Assembly: GCA_944390645.1 (NCBI GenBank) | Contig: CALXRE010000058.1 | Location: forward strand, 10,737 to 74,736 | Source of the DNA: an uncultured Alphaproteobacteria bacterium | GTDB taxonomy: Bacteria; Pseudomonadota; Alphaproteobacteria; CACZRW01 | Length of the DNA stretch: 64,000 bases | Direction: 5' to 3' | Part shown: piece by piece, positions 12,038 to 40,221 of the stretch | Position numbering within the stretch: position 1 is the stretch's first letter | Layout: each line of letters opens with the position of its first letter | Notes under the pieces: model-generated | What the model was told of the DNA's origin: nothing | Seen by the model: only the letters and a program-made list of their open reading frames with translations | The model's database searches: none | Translations under genes and position numbers: made by a program

Positions 12038-13306
12038 ATGGATGCTTTAAATCAGGGACCTGAACAGCAAATAATTGATACTTTAGAGAGATTACTAAAA
12101 TCTCCTGATATCTTCTATGCGGTAAGAATTTTCGTCTCTCGCTTGCTCCCTGTACATCAAAATAATAATAAAATCGCTATTATCTTCCATATCTTGGGCG
12201 AAAATAATTATATTTATAAATTATCAAACCAAGATGTGATTTTGCTTATTCGAAATGTCAAAAAAAAACAACTTGAACAACTCTTTGATTCTATTCGTTC
12301 CTTGTTCCCTAGAGACCCTGCTATATTAAAAAATCCTCCAGAATATTTTATCAAAACCTATAATCTGAAAAGTGAATATAGATCTTTTGTTCAAGATCTT
12401 AATAAATTAGAAAATGAAGAAAAAATAAATAAAAATGAAAAATACAAAATCCCTTTAACTCCTGAAAACTTAGAGGAGGAAATCCAAAGAGCTAAACTCT
12501 CTGATATCGTAGACGCTATTCGAAAACAACCTGTAATAACTCTCGCTGCTCAACAAAAAATAAAAATCTTATTCTATGAATTCTTTACTTCAACTACTTT
12601 GTTAGGGCAAAAAGCTATACCAAATGTTAATTTATTATCTGATCCTTGGTTGTTCCAACACTTAACGGAAACTTTGGATTTGAAAGTTATTGATGCTATT
12701 CAAAATAGTAAACTAGCTTTTCTCCCTCCTGTAATTAGTCTGAATTTAAATATTTCATCTCTTTTTAATCCTATTTTCTCAGACTTTAGCTATAAAATGT
12801 TGGAAAAAAATATAACCATTATCGCTGAAATACAAGTCCGTGATATCTTTTCTAATCCTGATGGCTATATAAAAGCAAAAGAAATGTTAAATAAAATGGG
12901 GCATAAAATCCTCTTGGATGGTGTTAATCACAATTCTTTGCTCTTCCTAGACGTTATTAGCTTTAATCCTGATTTAATAAAAATTATTTGGTCATCTCAG
13001 CTCGAAGATGATTATGATATTGAAAGGTTAAAACAAATTCGTGAAAAAAACCAAAAAATTATATTGTGTAGATGTGATGATGAAAAAGCTCTAATGTGGG
13101 GCGTGAATAATAAAATACGATTATTCCAAGGTGTTTTCGTAGATAAAATGGTCGCTGCTCTTACTAAAAAAATATGTAAAAACTTATCTTGCTCCTTAGC
13201 CGAATGTATCGAAAATCTTAATGCTATGCCTAGCAATATATACTCAAAATGTCAAAATACAGAAATTATTGATAATCCTCCGTTCGAAACTGAAAAAATC
13301 TGGTAG
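12038..13306 (+). CDS. hypothetical protein, N-terminal unknown domain + C-terminal degenerate EAL-like domain (paralog A)
   Basis: C-terminal half aligns by eye to the EAL fold: PWLFQHLTETLD, LNLNISSLFNP, ILLDGVNHNSLLFLDVISFNPDLIKIIWS, IILCRCDDEKALMWGVNNKIRLFQGVFV. Catalytic residues are substituted. Paralogous over its full length to the next gene. Confidence 0.55.
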   Translation: MDALNQGPEQQIIDTLERLLKSPDIFYAVRIFVSRLLPVHQNNNKIAIIFHILGENNYIYKLSNQDVILLIRNVKKKQLEQLFDSIRSLFPRDPAILKNPPEYFIKTYNLKSEYRSFVQDLNKLENEEKINKNEKYKIPLTPENLEEEIQRAKLSDIVDAIRKQPVITLAAQQKIKILFYEFFTSTTLLGQKAIPNVNLLSDPWLFQHLTETLDLKVIDAIQNSKLAFLPPVISLNLNISSLFNPIFSDFSYKMLEKNITIIAEIQVRDIFSNPDGYIKAKEMLNKMGHKILLDGVNHNSLLFLDVISFNPDLIKIIWSSQLEDDYDIERLKQIREKNQKIILCRCDDEKALMWGVNNKIRLFQGVFVDKMVAALTKKICKNLSCSLAECIENLNAMPSNIYSKCQNTEIIDNPPFETEKIW

Positions 13307-13312
13307 GATAAA

Positions 13313-14560
13313 ATGGTAAAAAATAATCTTACACGACAAGAAACTCAATTACTCTTATATATAAAAAAACTTGAGAAAGATATAAATAAAATCCCTTATG
13401 ATGTTTTATATCTTAAAACTTCTCAGTTGCCAGAAAAACAAAAAAATCGCTTCTTAAAAGCAATAAATGATATGATCCAACCTATGGTTCTCTTACATAA
13501 ATGGCAAAAATTCTTCCTCGCTAATGATGATATCGTCTTATTCTTCTCTGCTACTCAAAAAGATGAACTGGAAGCTATTATATTTAAAATCAATTTCTTC
13601 GTCCCAGAAGAAAACGCTTATGAACTGACAAAGGTCTATAATCTTAAAAAACAATTTAAAGAGTTTTTAGAATGCTTGAATTCAAAAATAGGAAGAAAAA
13701 AAGAAAATAAAAATGTTCAAAAAAAAGAAAATGTTTTTGAAGCTTTACCTAATAATTTAGATAAAGAAAAAAATGAAGATAAACCAAAAAAACAACCATT
13801 AACTCCTAAAATGCTCTCAATGGTTGAAAATTCCCTTAAAGGAACAGATTTCGCTAATATGATTAGACGGCAGTCGATATGTGTAGTCGTAGGTTCTTCT
13901 CAGCCTCAACCTATGTTCGATGAGGTGTTCGTATCTGTTTCGGATTTAAGAGATACTTTGCTCCCTAATGTCGATTTCTCTCTTACTCCATGGCTTTTCC
14001 AACATCTTACGGAAACTCTGGATAAAAGAGTACTATCAAATATTAATAGACATGATGACGGTTCGTTTAAAAGTCATTTTAGTATCAATTTAAATGTTTC
14101 TACTATCTTGTCTCCTGATTTTATAAGCTTCGATAAAGGTATACCTAACGCTTTCAAAAATACTATATTCCTAGAACTTCAACCAGTTGATATATTCTCT
14201 GATCTAGCTTCTTATATTATGGCTAAAAACTTTGCTAAAGAACGAGGATATAAAATCTGTATTGATGGTATCTCTCATACTTCTTTGCAATACATAGATA
14301 GAGAACGATTAGATGCGGATCTATTAAAAGTTTTCTGGAGCCAAGATATTATTAATCGAATAGAAAAAAATGATGAAAACATCTTCCTTGATATCAAAAA
14401 AAATGGTCCTTCAAGAGTAGTCCTAGCTAGAGTAGATGATGCTAAAGCTATAGATATAGGGCATACTCTAGGAATAAATATATTCCAAGGGCGATATATC
14501 CAAAAACTCTTAACTTCTTCTCCAGAAAAAAGAAGAGTAAATTCTTTTTATATGGGATAA
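13313..14560 (+). CDS. hypothetical protein, N-terminal unknown domain + C-terminal degenerate EAL-like domain (paralog B)
   Basis: Shares PWLFQHLTETLD exactly with paralog A. FSINLNVSTILSPDF, ICIDGISHTSLQYIDRERLDADLLKVFWS, VVLARVDDAKAIDIGHTLGINIFQGRYI match the EAL scaffold with degenerate DDFGTG and EGVE positions. Confidence 0.55.
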   Translation: MVKNNLTRQETQLLLYIKKLEKDINKIPYDVLYLKTSQLPEKQKNRFLKAINDMIQPMVLLHKWQKFFLANDDIVLFFSATQKDELEAIIFKINFFVPEENAYELTKVYNLKKQFKEFLECLNSKIGRKKENKNVQKKENVFEALPNNLDKEKNEDKPKKQPLTPKMLSMVENSLKGTDFANMIRRQSICVVVGSSQPQPMFDEVFVSVSDLRDTLLPNVDFSLTPWLFQHLTETLDKRVLSNINRHDDGSFKSHFSINLNVSTILSPDFISFDKGIPNAFKNTIFLELQPVDIFSDLASYIMAKNFAKERGYKICIDGISHTSLQYIDRERLDADLLKVFWSQDIINRIEKNDENIFLDIKKNGPSRVVLARVDDAKAIDIGHTLGINIFQGRYIQKLLTSSPEKRRVNSFYMG

Positions 14561-20397: not shown

Positions 20398-20474
20398 CGG
20401 AATGTAGCTCAGTCTGGTAGAGCACCACGTTCGGGACGTGGGGGTCGCTGGTTCGAATCCCGTCATTCCGACCA
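20398..20474 (+). tRNA. tRNA-Pro (anticodon CGG)
   Basis: 77-nt cloverleaf folded by hand. Acceptor stem cggaatg/cattccg, D arm agctcagtctggtagagc, anticodon stem ccacg/cgtgg with loop TTCGGGA (CGG), T arm ggttcgaatcc, 3' CCA encoded. Confidence 0.85.
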
Positions 20475-20503
20475 TAAATAAACTAATCTAAAAATCTTTA
20501 ACG

Positions 20504-20713
20504 TTAGTAGTGTGGTGGGGGTGTCTCTTCTGATAGTGGACGAATGTTGCTACCTAGTGCTTCTTTTAATTCTTTATTCTCTTTTATTAAACGGTCTATA
20601 ATCTTCCATTGCTTAATAATTTCTTCATTCAATTCATTTAGCATTTTTTGTTGATGGAGAAAGTCTATTTCTAAACTATCTATCCTTTCTTCTATTAGTT
20701 CTTTAATGCTCAT
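20504..20713 (-). CDS. slyX: SlyX family coiled-coil protein
   Basis: 69 aa; MSIKELIEERIDSLE...NELNEEI...IDRL with C-terminal ETPPPHY, which matches the E. coli SlyX C-terminus. Confidence 0.85.
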   Translation of the reverse strand: MSIKELIEERIDSLEIDFLHQQKMLNELNEEIIKQWKIIDRLIKENKELKEALGSNIRPLSEETPPPHY

Positions 20714-20776
20714 GATATCTCTCCTTTCCTTAAATTATATAAGGATAAGCTTAAAAACGTCAATAAGAGAAAATAA

Positions 20777-20806
20777 TTGACAAAAAAGAAAAAAAAGCAT
20801 TAAAAT
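20777..20806 (+). promoter_or_regulatory. sigma70-like promoter driving the 20842-22881 cassette
   Basis: TTGACA (20777-20782), 18-nt spacer, TAAAAT (20801-20806); AGAGGA RBS before ATG 20842. Confidence 0.55.
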
Positions 20807-20841
20807 ACTTAAATGCTTTCTTACAAAAGAGGATTACTATT

Positions 20842-21138
20842 ATGAATAGTGAAAAAATAAAGTATCTCGCATATAAAGAATTAGGTTTTAGTCCTTGTGA
20901 ACATAAATATTTTGATGAATTGCTAGAACAAATTGTTAAAGTTCGAGGTTTATCTGATGAAGACAACCCTATTCATAAAAGTAAAAATTATGAAAATGTG
21001 GAAGCACTTATTGGAAATATAAATAATTTCTTACAAAAATACGCTTTGCGAGCGGGAGAACGTATTGATATTAAACCGCCTGAAATGACAGAAGAAAATA
21101 TATTAGCTTTTGAAAAATTTTCTACCATTTGCAAATGA
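20842..21138 (+). CDS. hypothetical protein (98 aa), first gene of tRNA-adjacent cassette
   Basis: ORF with good promoter and RBS context; no recognisable motif; its 3' end overlaps the next ORF by 10 nt. Confidence 0.5.
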   Translation: MNSEKIKYLAYKELGFSPCEHKYFDELLEQIVKVRGLSDEDNPIHKSKNYENVEALIGNINNFLQKYALRAGERIDIKPPEMTEENILAFEKFSTICK

Positions 21139-21929
21139 GAAAAGAGAAAAAAACTCAATATAAGAACTATAATGCAGTTTTATGTATGGGGGCAGCAGAA
21201 AACGCTGTTCGTTCTCGTATGAAACGGTTGGGAGATGTCATTACAAATGAAGGCGTATCTATTGAAAATATTATGGTTTTAGGGGCGGAAAGAAAATTAT
21301 GGCCTTTGAAAAAAGATGGAGATAGTCGTTCTTTCCCAGAGCCTATTTTATATGATATTTTAGCAAGGCGTTTGACTCAACGGGATGGAAAAACTGTTTT
21401 GCCTGAAGAGGTAAAAGAATATATTTTAAACTTAGAAATTAAAGAAAATGCAGTGGAAAAAATTGCTGAAGAAGTGGCTGCTGATAAATATTTTTCTAGT
21501 ATAAAATGGCCAACTGAAACAGATTTAATCTGTGAAGTTATTAAACAAAATCCAGTATTTGATGCGCAAAAAATTATTGTTGTAAATACACCAGATTTTC
21601 CTGATGGGAAAAGGGCTGATTCTGCTCGTACTATAAAATATGCTTATAAGGAAAATTCGGATATTTTTGTTGCTGGAGCAAAAATTTTGCAAATTTCTTC
21701 ACAGCCATTTACGAGAAACCAAAAAAGAGTTGCTGAATTAAACCTTCCCTCAAACGTTGAAATTGATGTCATAGGAGAAGGAATAGATGAAGGAAAATCT
21801 TTTGAAGCAAGAAAAAAAGATGTGATGATCGGAATGGATTCTATGGCACGAACAATTTATGCATCTTATGGTAAAATAAAAGAGAACATATTGTCTAAAA
21901 ACATGATAGGTAATGAATATAGAAGATAA
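21129..21929 (+). CDS. hypothetical protein (266 aa), alternating beta-strand/helix hydrophobic pattern, family not recognised
   Basis: Alternating hydrophobic strand / helix pattern (AVLCMGAAEN, NIMVLGAERK, KIIVVNTPDFPDG, DIFVAGAKIL) suggests a Rossmann-like fold. Translationally coupled to neighbours on both sides. Confidence 0.5.
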   Translation: MQMRKEKKTQYKNYNAVLCMGAAENAVRSRMKRLGDVITNEGVSIENIMVLGAERKLWPLKKDGDSRSFPEPILYDILARRLTQRDGKTVLPEEVKEYILNLEIKENAVEKIAEEVAADKYFSSIKWPTETDLICEVIKQNPVFDAQKIIVVNTPDFPDGKRADSARTIKYAYKENSDIFVAGAKILQISSQPFTRNQKRVAELNLPSNVEIDVIGEGIDEGKSFEARKKDVMIGMDSMARTIYASYGKIKENILSKNMIGNEYRR

Positions 21930-22881
21930 ATATGAAATTTTGGATGTTATAGAGTCTGGATATAATTCTATAGTCTTTAAAGTACAAATCCCAGAATTTG
22001 GTTTGTGTGCAGTAAAACGTTTAAGAAGTAAACATGAGTTCAGACGATCTACAGATAACGCTTTTGCCGAATTCTCTAAAGAAATAGAAATATATAAGCG
22101 TCTAAAAGGACTAAAAGGTTTCCCTCAAATATATGATTTTTACCTTGATGAAAAAGCTCTTGAAAAGAATTATTTAATAATGAGTTGGGTCGATGGTAAA
22201 ATGGTCTCTGATTTGTGGGCTCAACACTATGATTTATCTCTTATTACACCTGAAAAAATAACAAAAATATATCATCTATTATTAGAAATGGATAAAAAAG
22301 GAATTATCCATAATGATTTATGGGCAACAAATATATTGTTCGCAGAAGAGGATGTTAGTATTATAGACTTTAATTTAGGACAAATTGTTAATCCTTTGAT
22401 ATTGTATGAATATAAGCATAAAGATTATTTTAGTAATCTAAAAGTCTTTAATAGATTATTTTTGGATAATTTCCTTGCAGATGTGTATGAAAAAAAAGGA
22501 AGCCAAGTTTTTAATGCTTTCTATATGCATATTGCTAATTGTGAGTATGATTTTTATAAGCAAAAAGCTGTTTTTATGTTGGCTAATAATGAACCTCAGA
22601 AAGCCGATTATTTACTTAAATCCGCAATGGAGATAAAAAGAAAAATTAATCAACCCAAAAGCTTGGAAAAAGAAGGTTTAAAAAGAATATTGGCTTTCTC
22701 TGTAAAACAAGCATTCAAAAATAAAAAACGAGAAAATGTTTTTAAAGTGAATTATCAGAGAGTCTTGAAAATTATCTCTGAAAATCCAGATTTGCTTACT
22801 CCTAAAATACAGGCTTACCTTTATCCTATGCAAAGAAAAATAAGATTTCTTGCTTCGCTATCTAATACAAGAGCATTATAA
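21913..22881 (+). CDS. protein-kinase-like-fold phosphotransferase (APH/choline-kinase/Kdo-kinase-like Brenner motif)
   Basis: Gly-rich loop region ESGYNSIVFKV, beta3 Lys CAVKRL, catalytic loop IIHNDLWATNILF (Brenner motif h-H-N-D-L-x3-N-I-L), DFG-equivalent IIDFNLG. An approx 130-aa C-terminal extension of unknown nature. Confidence 0.6.
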   Translation: MNIEDKYEILDVIESGYNSIVFKVQIPEFGLCAVKRLRSKHEFRRSTDNAFAEFSKEIEIYKRLKGLKGFPQIYDFYLDEKALEKNYLIMSWVDGKMVSDLWAQHYDLSLITPEKITKIYHLLLEMDKKGIIHNDLWATNILFAEEDVSIIDFNLGQIVNPLILYEYKHKDYFSNLKVFNRLFLDNFLADVYEKKGSQVFNAFYMHIANCEYDFYKQKAVFMLANNEPQKADYLLKSAMEIKRKINQPKSLEKEGLKRILAFSVKQAFKNKKRENVFKVNYQRVLKIISENPDLLTPKIQAYLYPMQRKIRFLASLSNTRAL

Positions 22882-22971
22882 CAATATAATTTTTATAAAA
22901 TAATTTTATTGCACCGAATTAAATAGCGTAATAACCTTCTAAGCAGGTTTAATCCGAGATGGAGATATATT

Positions 22972-23778
22972 ATGGCTGATGAAAAGCTACAAAAAGAAGA
23001 AATTAATGAAACAGAAAAGGTTAAGGAAAATCAAACAAAAGATCCTTCTTGTACAACCGTAGAGCCAAAAGGACAAAAAGCTAAAATATCTTGGCAACGC
23101 TTCCTTTTTCCAAATATTCATATGGATGGCTGGAAGTTCGTCGGTTTGGCAGCTTTGTTCGCTATAGTCTTAGGGGTTATCTCCACGCCACTTGGAGTTT
23201 TGGGTTGGTTGTTGACTGCTTTTGTCTTTTTCTTCTTTAGAGATCCAGATAGAGTTACTCCTGTCGGAGATAATTTCGTTGTCAGTCCTGCAGATGGCTT
23301 GGTTAATGCTATTGTAATGGCGCCTCCTCCTCCAGAACTTGAAATGGGAGACGAGCCTGTTGTAAGAGTAAGTATATTCTTAAGCTTATTTAATGTTCAT
23401 ATAAATCGTGTGCCAGCTACAGGTACAATAACTCGTTTAATTTATATCCCTGGGAAATTCTTTAATGCATCACTTGATAAAGCCAGTAAATATAATGAAC
23501 GTCAAATCGTGGCTATGAAAACTGCTCAAGAAAACCAAAATTTGGTTTTTGTACAAATAGCTGGCTTAGTTGCGCGTAGGATTCTATGTGATTTGAATGA
23601 AGGTGATAAAGTTATTGCAGGTCAAAAATTTGGTCTTATCCGTTTTGGAAGTAGAATGGATGTATATTTGCCTAAAGGTGTCGAACCTCAGGTGGTTTGT
23701 GGGCAAGAAGTTGTCGCTGGAGAGACTGTTATCGCTGATATAGCAATTAAACATGGTCGAAAAGGAGAAATTCGATAA
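22972..23778 (+). CDS. psd: phosphatidylserine decarboxylase proenzyme
   Basis: 268 aa; the self-cleavage/pyruvoyl site sits in LIRFGSRMDVYLP (GS(R/T) motif). Confidence 0.85.
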   Translation: MADEKLQKEEINETEKVKENQTKDPSCTTVEPKGQKAKISWQRFLFPNIHMDGWKFVGLAALFAIVLGVISTPLGVLGWLLTAFVFFFFRDPDRVTPVGDNFVVSPADGLVNAIVMAPPPPELEMGDEPVVRVSIFLSLFNVHINRVPATGTITRLIYIPGKFFNASLDKASKYNERQIVAMKTAQENQNLVFVQIAGLVARRILCDLNEGDKVIAGQKFGLIRFGSRMDVYLPKGVEPQVVCGQEVVAGETVIADIAIKHGRKGEIR

Positions 23779-37515: not shown

Positions 37516-40221
37516 CTAGTCAAATACAAAATGAGCTATCCTAAATACTTCTGGACAGGGATCTTTAAAGCAGACTGCTGCAAAATCTCTTAGTTCTTCT
37601 TTAGTCGCAACTCGACTTAAAGCCCAAACAGCGGTTTCTCTAATTAAATTATCTGAATTACTACCCGCAAATAATAAAACATCTTTTAAACTCTTATCTT
37701 GGCTCTTGCCCGCAACATAAACTGCACAAGAGGTCGTCCAAGAATGTAAACTACCATTCGCATAATATATTAAATCTTTTAATCGATCAGAAAGATTTAA
37801 TGCACCTATAAACGGTGATGATGATTCTTGATACTTCTTACCGTGAGTAAACGGTAATGTAAAAGATGAGCTAATATCTCCATAATAACTTAAAAGCTTC
37901 TTTAAATTTTTTATCCTATCTTCGCTTTGTTCATGTTCCTTAGCTAAGGCAACGCCTAGAGTATTTACGGAATCCAAAAGTTCTTTATGTTCTTCTTTAC
38001 TCCGATTTATATCATTCTCTGCTGAGCTTAACCAAGCTAAATGCTCTAATTCACTCTTAAGATGCGTACTTAATATTGACGGATTTCCAAAATCAATAAA
38101 AAGATAATCTTTAGAAGTTAAAATCTTTAAAATAACCATCTGTAAATATCTTGATGAGTTATTTAAAACTTCTAATAAAATCGTTTGCGCCTTTAATCCT
38201 CCTATACGACCTATGATATTTATTAACCGTACTTGTAAAGAAATACTGTGTTCTTCAGAATATAATGCTTCTTTTAAGTATGGTAAGGCTTCTTCATCTA
38301 GCTTTAAAAGACCTTCTGTCGCATCCTCTCTGAGCTCAGGAACACTAAGTGCATAGATTAGTTCTTTGGCTAGCTTTGTTGTTCTAAGCTTGCCTGCAGC
38401 AATTACAGCTTCTCTCCTTACTTGAAGTGTCTCATCATGAAGCAAAGGAAATAAAGGACGATAATATTCCTTAATTTTAACACTACCTATGATCTGGGCT
38501 ACTAATAGCCTTTGTTCAGCATTTTCCGAGTTGATTAAACCTGCTATACTTTGAGAGGCTATAAACGATCCTTCTAATCCTCCTTTTAATAAACCTATGG
38601 CGGCTCCTTTTATCATGTTAGGATTGTTTAAATACCAAGAAACTTTCGAATATGTATTCTCTCCCCCTATAACACAATAAGCTCTTAATGCTCGATTGCG
38701 AACCTCTATTGAAGGATCTAATTCTACTAAATTTAAAATTAAAGGTAAGGCACTCTTAACCTTTAAATACTCTAATCTAGAAAGAGCAAAAAGTCTTACT
38801 CGTTCTTCAGAATTATTCAAAGAATACGAAAGTAATCGATCAATACTTGGATGTTCAGATACTTCTAAAACTCTTAAAAAATAAATCGTACTTTCTACAT
38901 CTTGATGTAAAATTTCTTCCTCTATGTAATCTTTTAAATGCTTATCTTCTAAAAATAAACGACCTCCCCACCAATAACGACTCATTAAAGTATCATATGT
39001 AATGCGGGTATAAAGACGAAAAGAAATATAAGCAAAAAGAATAATCAAAAGCGTAATTATTAATAATGAAATCGGTAAATCCCAAAATACAGGATGCGCC
39101 TCTATAAAAATTAAAAGAACTCCTGCAAAAACTATACTTACTGGTTCAACTATGATCCTTCTTACTGCTGATAGGCGTTTGCCTAAAGAAGGAAGTAAAG
39201 GAACTGAAAAGGATTTTGCTATCGGAGTAAGAACTAATTTATATATAATATCTTTCCCCATACGCGAAAAAGAAACTAGCCATAATAAAACTAAAAAACA
39301 ACCTGTCGCTCCTATAAAAATAAATATAGGAAGCGTTAATATCGTTGCTTTTAAACCTCTTATCCAAGGAAAATAATGAAATAACAATATAATAGCTAAA
39401 GTTAATAAACCTGCAAAAACATGAAACATCGCAAAAAAAGCTGTCATGTTCGATAGCCATTCTCCATATATCGCATAAACTCCTTGATAAAAAACGTAAT
39501 CGATTAAATAGCCTCCGATAATAAATAAACTTATTAAAGCAAAAAAACAGCATACAAGATATATTTGACGAGGAGAATTCTTTATTCCTTGAACGGTATA
39601 TGTTGAAGAATCTGGTTTGTGCTTATCTAAATGCTTCGCTATCCGATATAACAAAAATCCTGAAATAAATAATAAAAAGGTACTAATTAAAATTAAATTT
39701 ATTGGTAAGACAAAATAAACTAAAACCGTAACCGCAAGTCCACTTGTAATCATCGCTATAGCTTCAGTTGAAAGAATAGCTAGAAAACGCCAAGACTTCC
39801 AATCGTATTCACAAAAACGAAGTGCTATCAGCATAAAAGTAATATCGCTTAAAATAACACAAACGCTCTTCCATACCATTAATGAAGAGATAGAAAAACT
39901 GTTGTATTGACCAAAATAAAGAAGATAAAGCATCAAGGTAATAATAGATAAGGCCATCAAGGTTATTCCCGCCATTATCCCTGGTTGCTTCTTTATTCGA
40001 ATAAAATGAATCGATCCTATGCTCATTAATATACCTGATAGCATAAAGACTATCGGTAAATAGGCTCCTGAAAATTCATATAAAAAAATCGAAGAGGAAG
40101 CCGTCTCTAACATTAAAGACGAAATACGTCGTAGTAAATCACAACAAAAAAGCAAAAGTAAAAGCTTAGCTTCCTTACTCTTAAGTTGTAAAATCTCGTT
40201 TAACGTTCTATCTGATGCCAA
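37516..40221 (-). CDS. large polytopic membrane protein (10-12 TM, MFS/TLC-like) fused to C-terminal HEAT / PBS-lyase-like repeat array
   Basis: N-terminal approx 420 aa are almost entirely hydrophobic helices. The C-terminal approx 450 aa contain repeated units of type SxEVRNRALRAYCVIGG, VRREAVIAAGKL, LREDATEGLLKL, IRETAVWALSRV, typical of HEAT_2 repeats. Confidence 0.6.
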   Translation of the reverse strand: MASDRTLNEILQLKSKEAKLLLLLFCCDLLRRISSLMLETASSSIFLYEFSGAYLPIVFMLSGILMSIGSIHFIRIKKQPGIMAGITLMALSIITLMLYLLYFGQYNSFSISSLMVWKSVCVILSDITFMLIALRFCEYDWKSWRFLAILSTEAIAMITSGLAVTVLVYFVLPINLILISTFLLFISGFLLYRIAKHLDKHKPDSSTYTVQGIKNSPRQIYLVCCFFALISLFIIGGYLIDYVFYQGVYAIYGEWLSNMTAFFAMFHVFAGLLTLAIILLFHYFPWIRGLKATILTLPIFIFIGATGCFLVLLWLVSFSRMGKDIIYKLVLTPIAKSFSVPLLPSLGKRLSAVRRIIVEPVSIVFAGVLLIFIEAHPVFWDLPISLLIITLLIILFAYISFRLYTRITYDTLMSRYWWGGRLFLEDKHLKDYIEEEILHQDVESTIYFLRVLEVSEHPSIDRLLSYSLNNSEERVRLFALSRLEYLKVKSALPLILNLVELDPSIEVRNRALRAYCVIGGENTYSKVSWYLNNPNMIKGAAIGLLKGGLEGSFIASQSIAGLINSENAEQRLLVAQIIGSVKIKEYYRPLFPLLHDETLQVRREAVIAAGKLRTTKLAKELIYALSVPELREDATEGLLKLDEEALPYLKEALYSEEHSISLQVRLINIIGRIGGLKAQTILLEVLNNSSRYLQMVILKILTSKDYLFIDFGNPSILSTHLKSELEHLAWLSSAENDINRSKEEHKELLDSVNTLGVALAKEHEQSEDRIKNLKKLLSYYGDISSSFTLPFTHGKKYQESSSPFIGALNLSDRLKDLIYYANGSLHSWTTSCAVYVAGKSQDKSLKDVLLFAGSNSDNLIRETAVWALSRVATKEELRDFAAVCFKDPCPEVFRIAHFVFD

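Follow-up and report, generated by a model that had tools for sequence, protein, structure and literature searches.

The closest described counterparts of the two genes treated here, which lie side by side in a 64,000-nucleotide (nt) stretch of DNA from an uncultured alphaproteobacterium (contig CALXRE010000058.1, positions 10,737 to 74,736; called “the window” below), fall into two groups. For the downstream gene, these are Bud32/PRPK and the RIO kinases, which combine a compact core, the motifs HxDLxxxN and DF(G/N)LG and the lack of an activation segment; kinases of the 5-methylthioribose kinase/APH-choline type, which have a helical C-lobe and no Lys in the catalytic loop; and the minimal effector kinases OspG and NleH, with a small core that lacks an activation loop. 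Each of these traits is found in the kinase of our locus as well. For the upstream gene, named X here in its intact form of 362 amino acids (aa), the nearest solved relative of the alpha/beta domain is, on a weak resemblance, the nucleotide/S-adenosylmethionine (SAM)-binding protein YdcF. YdcF binds SAM, and a Thr-His-Glu triad has been proposed (PMC12176290). The locus is a chromosomal two-gene operon, X followed by the kinase gene, which is vertically inherited and stands behind its own conserved sigma-70 promoter. This corrects the annotation given in an earlier note on this DNA, made from the sequence alone, which had raised the possibility of an acquired three-gene effector or defence cassette. 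The operon consists of the following elements, with their positions in the window:

20777-20806, plus strand: sigma-70-type promoter, TTGACA-18 nt-TAAAAT, 11/12 consensus matches
20842-21138, plus strand: open reading frame (ORF) 1 of the ORF list, 98 aa, the 5' piece of X
21113-21117, plus strand: homopolymer of five A (A5), the frameshift site, from the alignment with the loci L001, L002 and L003
21129-21929, plus strand: ORF2 of the ORF list, 266 aa, the 3' piece of X (X residues 97/99-362)
21913-22881, plus strand: kinase, 322 aa, with core residues 1-160 and a helical domain at 175-316

Three genes had been counted in the earlier note, where there are two: the 98-aa and 266-aa ORFs are, by comparison with their homologues, the two halves of the single gene X with a one-base frameshift between them, because all homologues span both ORFs and the alleles differ by the length of one run of A. 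All seven clusters of homologues of the 266-aa ORF (7/7) have lengths of 362-368 aa and extend over the 98-aa ORF as well. The closest homologue, P0001, was identical to the 266-aa ORF in the search, and ORF1 equals its residues 1-92 except for D39E, followed by six out-of-frame codons and a stop. At the break, P0001 reads ...LAFEKIFYHLQMRKEKK and the window reads ...LAFEKFSTICK-stop. When the DNA of the window is aligned with L001, L002 and L003, three other assemblies of the window's species that carry the intact 362-aa gene, the sole difference at the split site is A5 in the window versus A6 in the other three. For annotators of these metagenome-assembled genomes (MAGs), it is relevant that the 98-aa “orphan” represents the N-terminal domain of a gene that has been split.

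The break separates the N-terminal helical domain, with its last helix ending at residue 96, from the alpha/beta part, in which the first strand is at residue 109. An in-frame ATG at 21135 overlaps the new stop as ATGA. Judged by this arrangement, the downstream piece of X can restart at the ATG of ATGA, and a two-piece X protein from the split allele is plausible. Programmed frameshifting or transcriptional slippage at A5 was considered and rejected as unnecessary, since both alleles exist as DNA. Both are further disfavoured by the shortness of A5 and by a sequence without the canonical heptamer, which has the form X XXY YYZ.

An exact-sequence look-up in the P0001 cluster returned four distinct intact variants of 362 aa, together with split forms that comprise four 98-aa and three 264-aa variants, for which contig counts sum to 9 and 7, respectively (these counts are per variant and may overlap). 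Loci from three ENA samples (L018-L020) have gene calls of 98 aa and then 264 aa, i.e., the split arrangement; in L020, only the first 29 codons of the second gene are on the contig. The haplotypes C19/D39, Y19/D39 and C19/E39 were each found both split and intact, which implies recurrent changes of run length or frequent recombination. Since split variants recur on many contigs, in several samples and on shared haplotypes, the A5 split is, as far as the assembled sequences tell, a real and common natural allele beside the intact one and not a one-off sequencing error. Split and intact X differ by 5-6 synonymous and 1 non-synonymous changes (5 + 1 between the window and L001), which corresponds to a ratio of non-synonymous to synonymous polymorphism (pN/pS) of about 0.05 and gives no apparent sign of decay after the split. 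The coexistence of A5 and A6 on shared haplotypes is an unusual split/intact polymorphism in gut metagenomes; intact and domain-boundary-split alleles on the same haplotypes amount to a small natural experiment on gene fission.

The ORFs, a tRNA-Pro(CGG), slyX, the promoter and the kinase motifs all lie at the places given in the earlier note, and the flanking housekeeping blocks, mnmA upstream and psd-pssA downstream, are likewise as described there; gcvTHP follows psd-pssA. The operon promoter is accepted because its hexamers and their spacing are conserved across species, not because of its consensus match: TTGACA and a TAnnAT -10 element recur at equal spacing in L004, L006 and L007, loci from species in which the X protein is only ~68% identical to that of the window, and the spacer and flanks have diverged. 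Promoter-like matches as such are not enriched in the region (8 found versus 13.3 expected in shuffled sequence). In the window, the end of X and the beginning of the kinase gene have 17 nt in common, and X and the kinase are therefore probably translated together; in L004, a gap of 1 nt separates them. Between the kinase stop and the psd start, a 90-nt gap (22882-22971) is free of any terminator-like structure, and given this, X and the kinase may be co-transcribed with psd-pssA-gcvTHP.

L001-L003, L018 and L004 share the gene order X-kinase-psd-pssA-gcv. In L019, this order can be followed up to pssA, and in L010, kinase-psd-pssA-gcv comes after the C-terminal part of an X copy. The pair is present in all same-species loci that are long enough and in two further species, in which the proteins are 63-69% identical. 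Identities to the L004 orthologues are 63% for the kinase, 66% for mnmA, 67% for X, 70% for gcvH, 78% for gcvT and 84% for psd. Even in one lineage where X is only 44% identical, it comes after tRNA-Pro(CGG) and directly adjoins psd-pssA, although the genes are arranged differently. GC content at third codon positions (GC3) is ordinary, with z-scores of -0.9 and -0.8 for the two operon genes, i.e., within 1 standard deviation (SD) of the other genes of the window. Searches of plasmids, phages and IMG/VR gave no close relative of X or of the kinase. From the shared position in relatives, the divergence in step with flanking genes, the ordinary GC3 and the lack of mobile relatives, the pair is judged to be vertically inherited and not an island inserted at tRNA-Pro.

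The surroundings upstream of the operon bear on the suggestion that the genes were acquired immediately 3' of the tRNA, at an integration hotspot. They contain three further features:

20398-20474, plus strand: tRNA-Pro(CGG) (ARAGORN; Rfam tRNA, 60.3 bits)
20504-20713, minus strand: slyX, 69 aa (Pfam SlyX, E 7.5e-16, 59 bits versus a cut-off of 30)
20763-20734, minus strand: divergent promoter-like site facing slyX, a mirror image of the operon promoter

The operon is not directly adjacent to the tRNA, as slyX sits between them on the opposite strand, divergent from X and the kinase. An Rfam scan of the whole window found nothing beyond the tRNA. The hotspot part of the claim holds: the tRNA-Pro site is a genuine variable hotspot, for other cargo than X and the kinase. 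Variable cargo in relatives lands between tRNA-Pro and slyX or X, and in the window this site is empty, with 29 nt. At the same spot, L004 carries an HTH/HipA gene and a DEAD helicase gene, and L006 five other genes, one of them for an ABC ATPase. A 3.8-kb insertion in the sister strain L001 (L001:3836-7667), absent from the window (20475-20503), separates tRNA-Pro(CGG) from slyX and contains a DUF2513 gene and a 932-aa MmeI-type restriction-modification (R-M) gene; a short similar sequence occurs at both of its junctions (CTAGTTGT / CTAGTAGT).

It is very unlikely that the pair is nonetheless an effector module aimed at the host, or an island that reached tRNA-Pro by horizontal transfer. The eukaryote-like kinase core with its weak similarity to OspG and NleH (E 0.029 and 0.055), the lineage-specific paralogy and tandem duplication of X, one X-family member from an annelid assembly and the total GC of the kinase gene, which lies ~2 SD under the mean of the window, could be read in this way. 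However, the pair occupies the same site in every examined relative with this neighbourhood and is not variable in its presence, the ORF list holds no integrase ORF from 20474 to 22972 (the window was not searched for repeats), and the real cargo (MmeI R-M, HipBA and others) lies on the other side of slyX. The scores for OspG and NleH are far below their cut-offs (14.8 versus 27 and 12.9 versus 450), and no secretion system or virulence context was found for a gene that is chromosomal and core-like in its lineage. Secretion signals and an intracellular lifestyle are not supported by the content of the window, which is otherwise that of a housekeeping region (LysRS, Obg, PPK, DsbD, AddAB, H+-PPase, glycine cleavage). 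The relatives are sheep-colon and rumen MAGs labelled only as Alphaproteobacteria, and they lend no support to the assumption of an obligate intracellular member of the Rickettsiales.

X is a cytoplasmic protein of an unannotated family that occurs mainly in uncultured Alphaproteobacteria. The 98-aa piece, the 266-aa piece and intact X match no family in Pfam, NCBIfam, PADLOC or PHROGs, in agreement with the earlier note, which had been able to place the upstream proteins in no named family and the pair in no described system. An exhaustive profile search with X gave 497 representatives at E <=1e-3, 92 of them at <=1e-10, and the family comprises roughly 500 clusters at 50% identity. The named relatives are “hypothetical proteins” from alphaproteobacterial MAGs, plus one entry from the annelid Dimorphilus. 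The latter is recorded from a 4.5-Mb scaffold of Dimorphilus gyrociliatus and might reflect transfer, contamination or a true eukaryotic homologue. Among the longer proteins of the family, only one informative fusion was seen, in which a GNAT acetyltransferase at the N-terminus precedes the C-terminal half of the X domain (representatives P0022/P0111: annelid entry and GNAT fusion). Copy number varies as well: X is tandemly duplicated, with the kinase after the second copy, in the MAG RGIG5556 from sheep colon and in a related contig from a metagenome (tandem loci L006:9924-11673, L007:6687-8589 and L010:3-401), and two X paralogues that are not linked to each other occur in the rumen MAG RUG12900 (L008, L009). 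The neighbourhoods of remote homologues show no recurrent functional partner; X stands there as a single gene among housekeeping genes.

In a 60-member alignment of the family, R74, G117, R151 and Q294 are invariant and Q65, R70, E73, R126, E226, R258, S/T261 and S286 nearly so, and the most conserved motif, QKYALRAGER, lies in the N-terminal four-helix domain. The AlphaFold2 (AF2) model of X is confident (predicted local distance difference test, pLDDT, 83.9; predicted template modelling score, pTM, 0.78). It places helices at residues 3-13, 18-34, 53-67 and 84-96 of the N-terminal part, followed by what is predicted to be a Rossmann-like alpha/beta domain that carries a helical insert and, at the C-terminus, a long helix. 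A Foldseek search of the PDB with this model returned nothing significant, and a PDB profile search with the family gave chance-level matches only (best E 0.23).

The comparison with YdcF has to be seen in this light. What X shares with E. coli YdcF and its DUF218 relatives SanA and ElyC is the order of small conserved motifs along the strands, in our own reading and without statistical support. X differs from them by extra parts, namely a helical domain at the N-terminus, an insert of 60 residues and a C-terminal helix of 40 residues, and SanA and ElyC are membrane-anchored, whereas X has no membrane anchor. With respect to the proposed triad, the X family keeps E226 and S/T261, by a correspondence drawn by eye, but the triad His (PMC12176290) has no conserved counterpart in the strand ISSQPFTRNQ. 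When 60 remote relatives of X were compared with Pfam, NCBIfam and PADLOC, nothing useful emerged beyond weak DUF218 matches in two of them (best E 0.0023), and X itself does not match Pfam DUF218 even at E up to 1. In hhalign, the X family reached a probability of 0.1% with YdcF alone and of 1.1% with E. coli YdcF, SanA, ElyC and YgjQ together. Membership of X in DUF218 was therefore rejected at the sequence level, on the Pfam and hhalign results.

The second gene encodes an atypical protein-kinase-like enzyme, with a complete Bud32/RIO-like core and a private helical C-terminal domain. The description in the earlier note stands: this is a phosphotransferase with a kinase fold, its Gly loop is degenerate, and it has an additional C-terminal domain, which lies at residues 175-316. 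The motifs IIHNDLWATNILF and DFNLG are present, and the Gly loop reads ESGYNS. K35, E57, H133/D135, N140 and D152, placed by alignment with Bud32, are invariant in all five family members (5/5) and correspond to the beta3 Lys, the alphaC Glu, the catalytic Asp of HxD, the downstream Asn and the Asp of DFx. Since this catalytic set is complete and invariant in the small family, the enzyme is, from its sequence, probably active. A canonical GxGxxG loop, an activation segment with APE and a full C-lobe of eukaryotic protein kinases are lacking. The AlphaFold model (pLDDT 84, pTM 0.84) has a compact core up to residue 160 and an all-helical domain at 175-316; residues 166-172, after DFNLG, are disordered in the model and are followed by the private helical domain. 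Such a domain, of ~150 residues, is absent from Bud32 and RIO, and Bud32 has a Kae1/TsaD partner, none of which adjoins the kinase here. The family consists of four clusters among 5.8 billion proteins. Its most distant member, at 32% identity and 452 aa, is found in an unrelated context without X. Within the species, pN/pS of the kinase (0.30-0.35) exceeds that of its neighbours (0.00-0.21), on small counts.

The Pfam Pkinase match exceeds its cut-off (E 4e-10, 40 bits versus 31.7, residues 7-160) and ends at profile position 149 of 263. Pfam APH (35.5 bits versus 23.2) and RIO1 (26.3 versus 22) also exceed their cut-offs, the APH match being composed of two short stretches, the best over residues 45-103. 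Below their cut-offs are Pfam Kdo (15.8 versus 21.3), the NCBIfam models for Kdo kinase (23.3 versus 142) and APH(3') (15 bits versus 205), and the NCBIfam Bud32 models (19-36 bits versus 125-447). The solved structures closest by sequence are Bud32 (2.8e-7) and Rio2 (6e-4). By sequence, the proposal that the kinase is closest to aminoglycoside, choline or Kdo kinases gives way to Pkinase, Bud32 and RIO; a fold search gives no distinction between kinases of proteins and of small molecules and decides for neither.

These matches bear on the possibility that the two genes form a two-step small-molecule pathway, in which an APH/5-methylthioribose kinase-like kinase and a nucleotide- or SAM-using X act on the same metabolite, possibly with a tie to head-group or phospholipid metabolism, as psd-pssA lies next to them. 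The APH score above the cut-off, the catalytic loop HNDLWATN without the Lys of HRDLKxxN, the SAM binding of the nearest structural relative of X (PMC12176290) and the position of X beside psd-pssA in two gene arrangements all point in this direction. Nevertheless, we regard such a pathway as doubtful. Apart from the better matches to Pkinase, Bud32 and RIO, the sequence identity to the 5-methylthioribose kinase/APH-choline type is only 12-14%. APH and choline kinases carry a second motif rich in Asp and Glu, which does not follow in the kinase here, where DFNLG resembles DFGLG of Bud32. Moreover, X occurs in many unrelated housekeeping contexts, and its linkage to psd-pssA may be inherited synteny. 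A superficially similar pair exists in E. coli K-12 (L023:3753-5402), where the DUF218 gene elyC overlaps ycbJ, a gene for an APH-like putative phosphotransferase, tail to tail. The parallel was rejected: the genes are convergent, YcbJ has no profile similarity to the kinase, and the overlap is treated as incidental in the literature.

A kinase-based toxin-antitoxin or anti-phage defence pair is extremely unlikely. Kinase residues 2-160 do match the PADLOC models PD-T4-6 (best 1.2e-16), mad6 and Stk2, but these matches cover the generic kinase core only. X is without a PADLOC model, and its 60 remote relatives gave chance-level matches only. The pair is fixed in position and inherited vertically instead of being patchily distributed. 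In addition, X is often broken while the kinase is intact, which is hard to reconcile with X as an antitoxin, and its presence alone in many genomes means that it is not a toxin that needs the kinase. The effector and defence roles suggested for the module thus find no support. Of the possible outcomes foreseen earlier, the genes turned out to be syntenic and core-like in the relatives; no confident profile match assigns them to a known pathway.

Instead, we somewhat favour the interpretation that the locus is a two-gene operon in which X handles a ligand, the kinase acts as its partner and the split X still yields both halves. Five Arg together with Glu, Gln and Ser/Thr are kept on a nucleotide-binding type of fold, and this pattern of conserved residues would fit a pocket for an anionic ligand; X might accordingly bind or process an anionic, nucleotide-like compound. 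The kinase would have joined X in one sub-lineage and would most likely act on X or on the ligand of X, as its partner in regulation or in a two-step process. In the window, X is cut at its domain boundary because one A of the A6 run is lost, and the split allele would probably still give both halves of the protein.

Several observations weigh against this interpretation. The resemblance of X to YdcF is weak (not significant in Foldseek, 0.1-1.1% in hhalign), the fold search leaves both a protein and a small molecule as substrate of the kinase, and no profile match in the library scans assigns a function to X or to the kinase. In most lineages (L005, L012, L014, L025, L028), X is present and the kinase is not. 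Since X is mostly without the kinase and the nearest kinase paralogue is without X, the partnership appears to be recent and need not be obligatory. Furthermore, X is often disrupted while the kinase is intact. Within the window's species, there is a second split of X (66 + 294 aa), an in-frame deletion of 13 aa by which the conserved WPTETD motif (the KYFSSIKWPTETD segment) is lost, and a 21-aa in-frame deletion in the N-terminal domain. The X gene of L011 (10001-11107) is a multi-lesion pseudogene next to intact psd and pssA; a TAG replaces the invariant Trp of RKLWPLKK, and two frameshifts that compensate each other lie in its central part. Given several apparent loss-of-function alleles, X may be dispensable or decaying in the window's species. 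A recoding of UGA as Trp was considered for L011 and rejected: at the conserved Trp, the stop codon is TAG, and the gene has two frameshifts besides. The second split and the two in-frame deletions, recorded in the P0001 cluster (P0183, P0186, P0187, P0190), might be real alleles or assembly artefacts.

Taken to its end, this argument leads to a rival account, which we consider unlikely: X would be decaying in the species, by relaxed selection or by on/off contingency at the A run, the kinase would function alone and the operon would be historical. Besides the lesions listed above and the separate occurrence of X and the kinase elsewhere, contig counts suggest that lesion-bearing assemblies outnumber intact ones, with the reservation that these counts are per variant and may overlap. 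The kinase is mostly intact, with 322 aa in 13 of the 15 listed variants; of the other two, one measures 325 aa and the other is a fragment of 197 aa from a contig of 1.2 kb. On the other hand, the split alleles show no excess of non-synonymous change, the break is located at the exact domain boundary with an in-frame ATG overlapping the new stop, and X is conserved at 44-69% across related species and tandemly duplicated in one. Finally, A5/A6 is short for a classical phase-variation tract.

A bolder version of the favoured interpretation, to which we assign a distinctly low probability, would be that X founds an undescribed family of enzymes or ligand-binding proteins, that a Bud32-like kinase was recruited to it in one gut lineage as a new signalling or modification module, and that the A5/A6 tract acts as a population switch between fused and two-piece (or off) X. 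In any case, the X family seems worth curating, being sizeable, with a confident predicted structure and clear invariant Arg, Glu and Gln, and lacking a Pfam, NCBIfam, PADLOC or PHROG model. X together with a very rare atypical kinase poses a concrete and cheap biochemical question, namely whether the kinase acts on X or on the ligand of X. The interest is modest, and the uncharacterised operon touches no long-standing open question.

Two further observations concern the rest of the window. The adjacent ORFs at 12038-13306 and 13313-14560, of 422 and 415 aa, are paralogous (31% over 350 residues, E 7e-46) and have no Pfam match at E <=1e-5. On the minus strand, positions 37516-40221 encode a 901-aa protein in which Pfam finds HEAT repeats only, which is unusual for a small bacterial genome.

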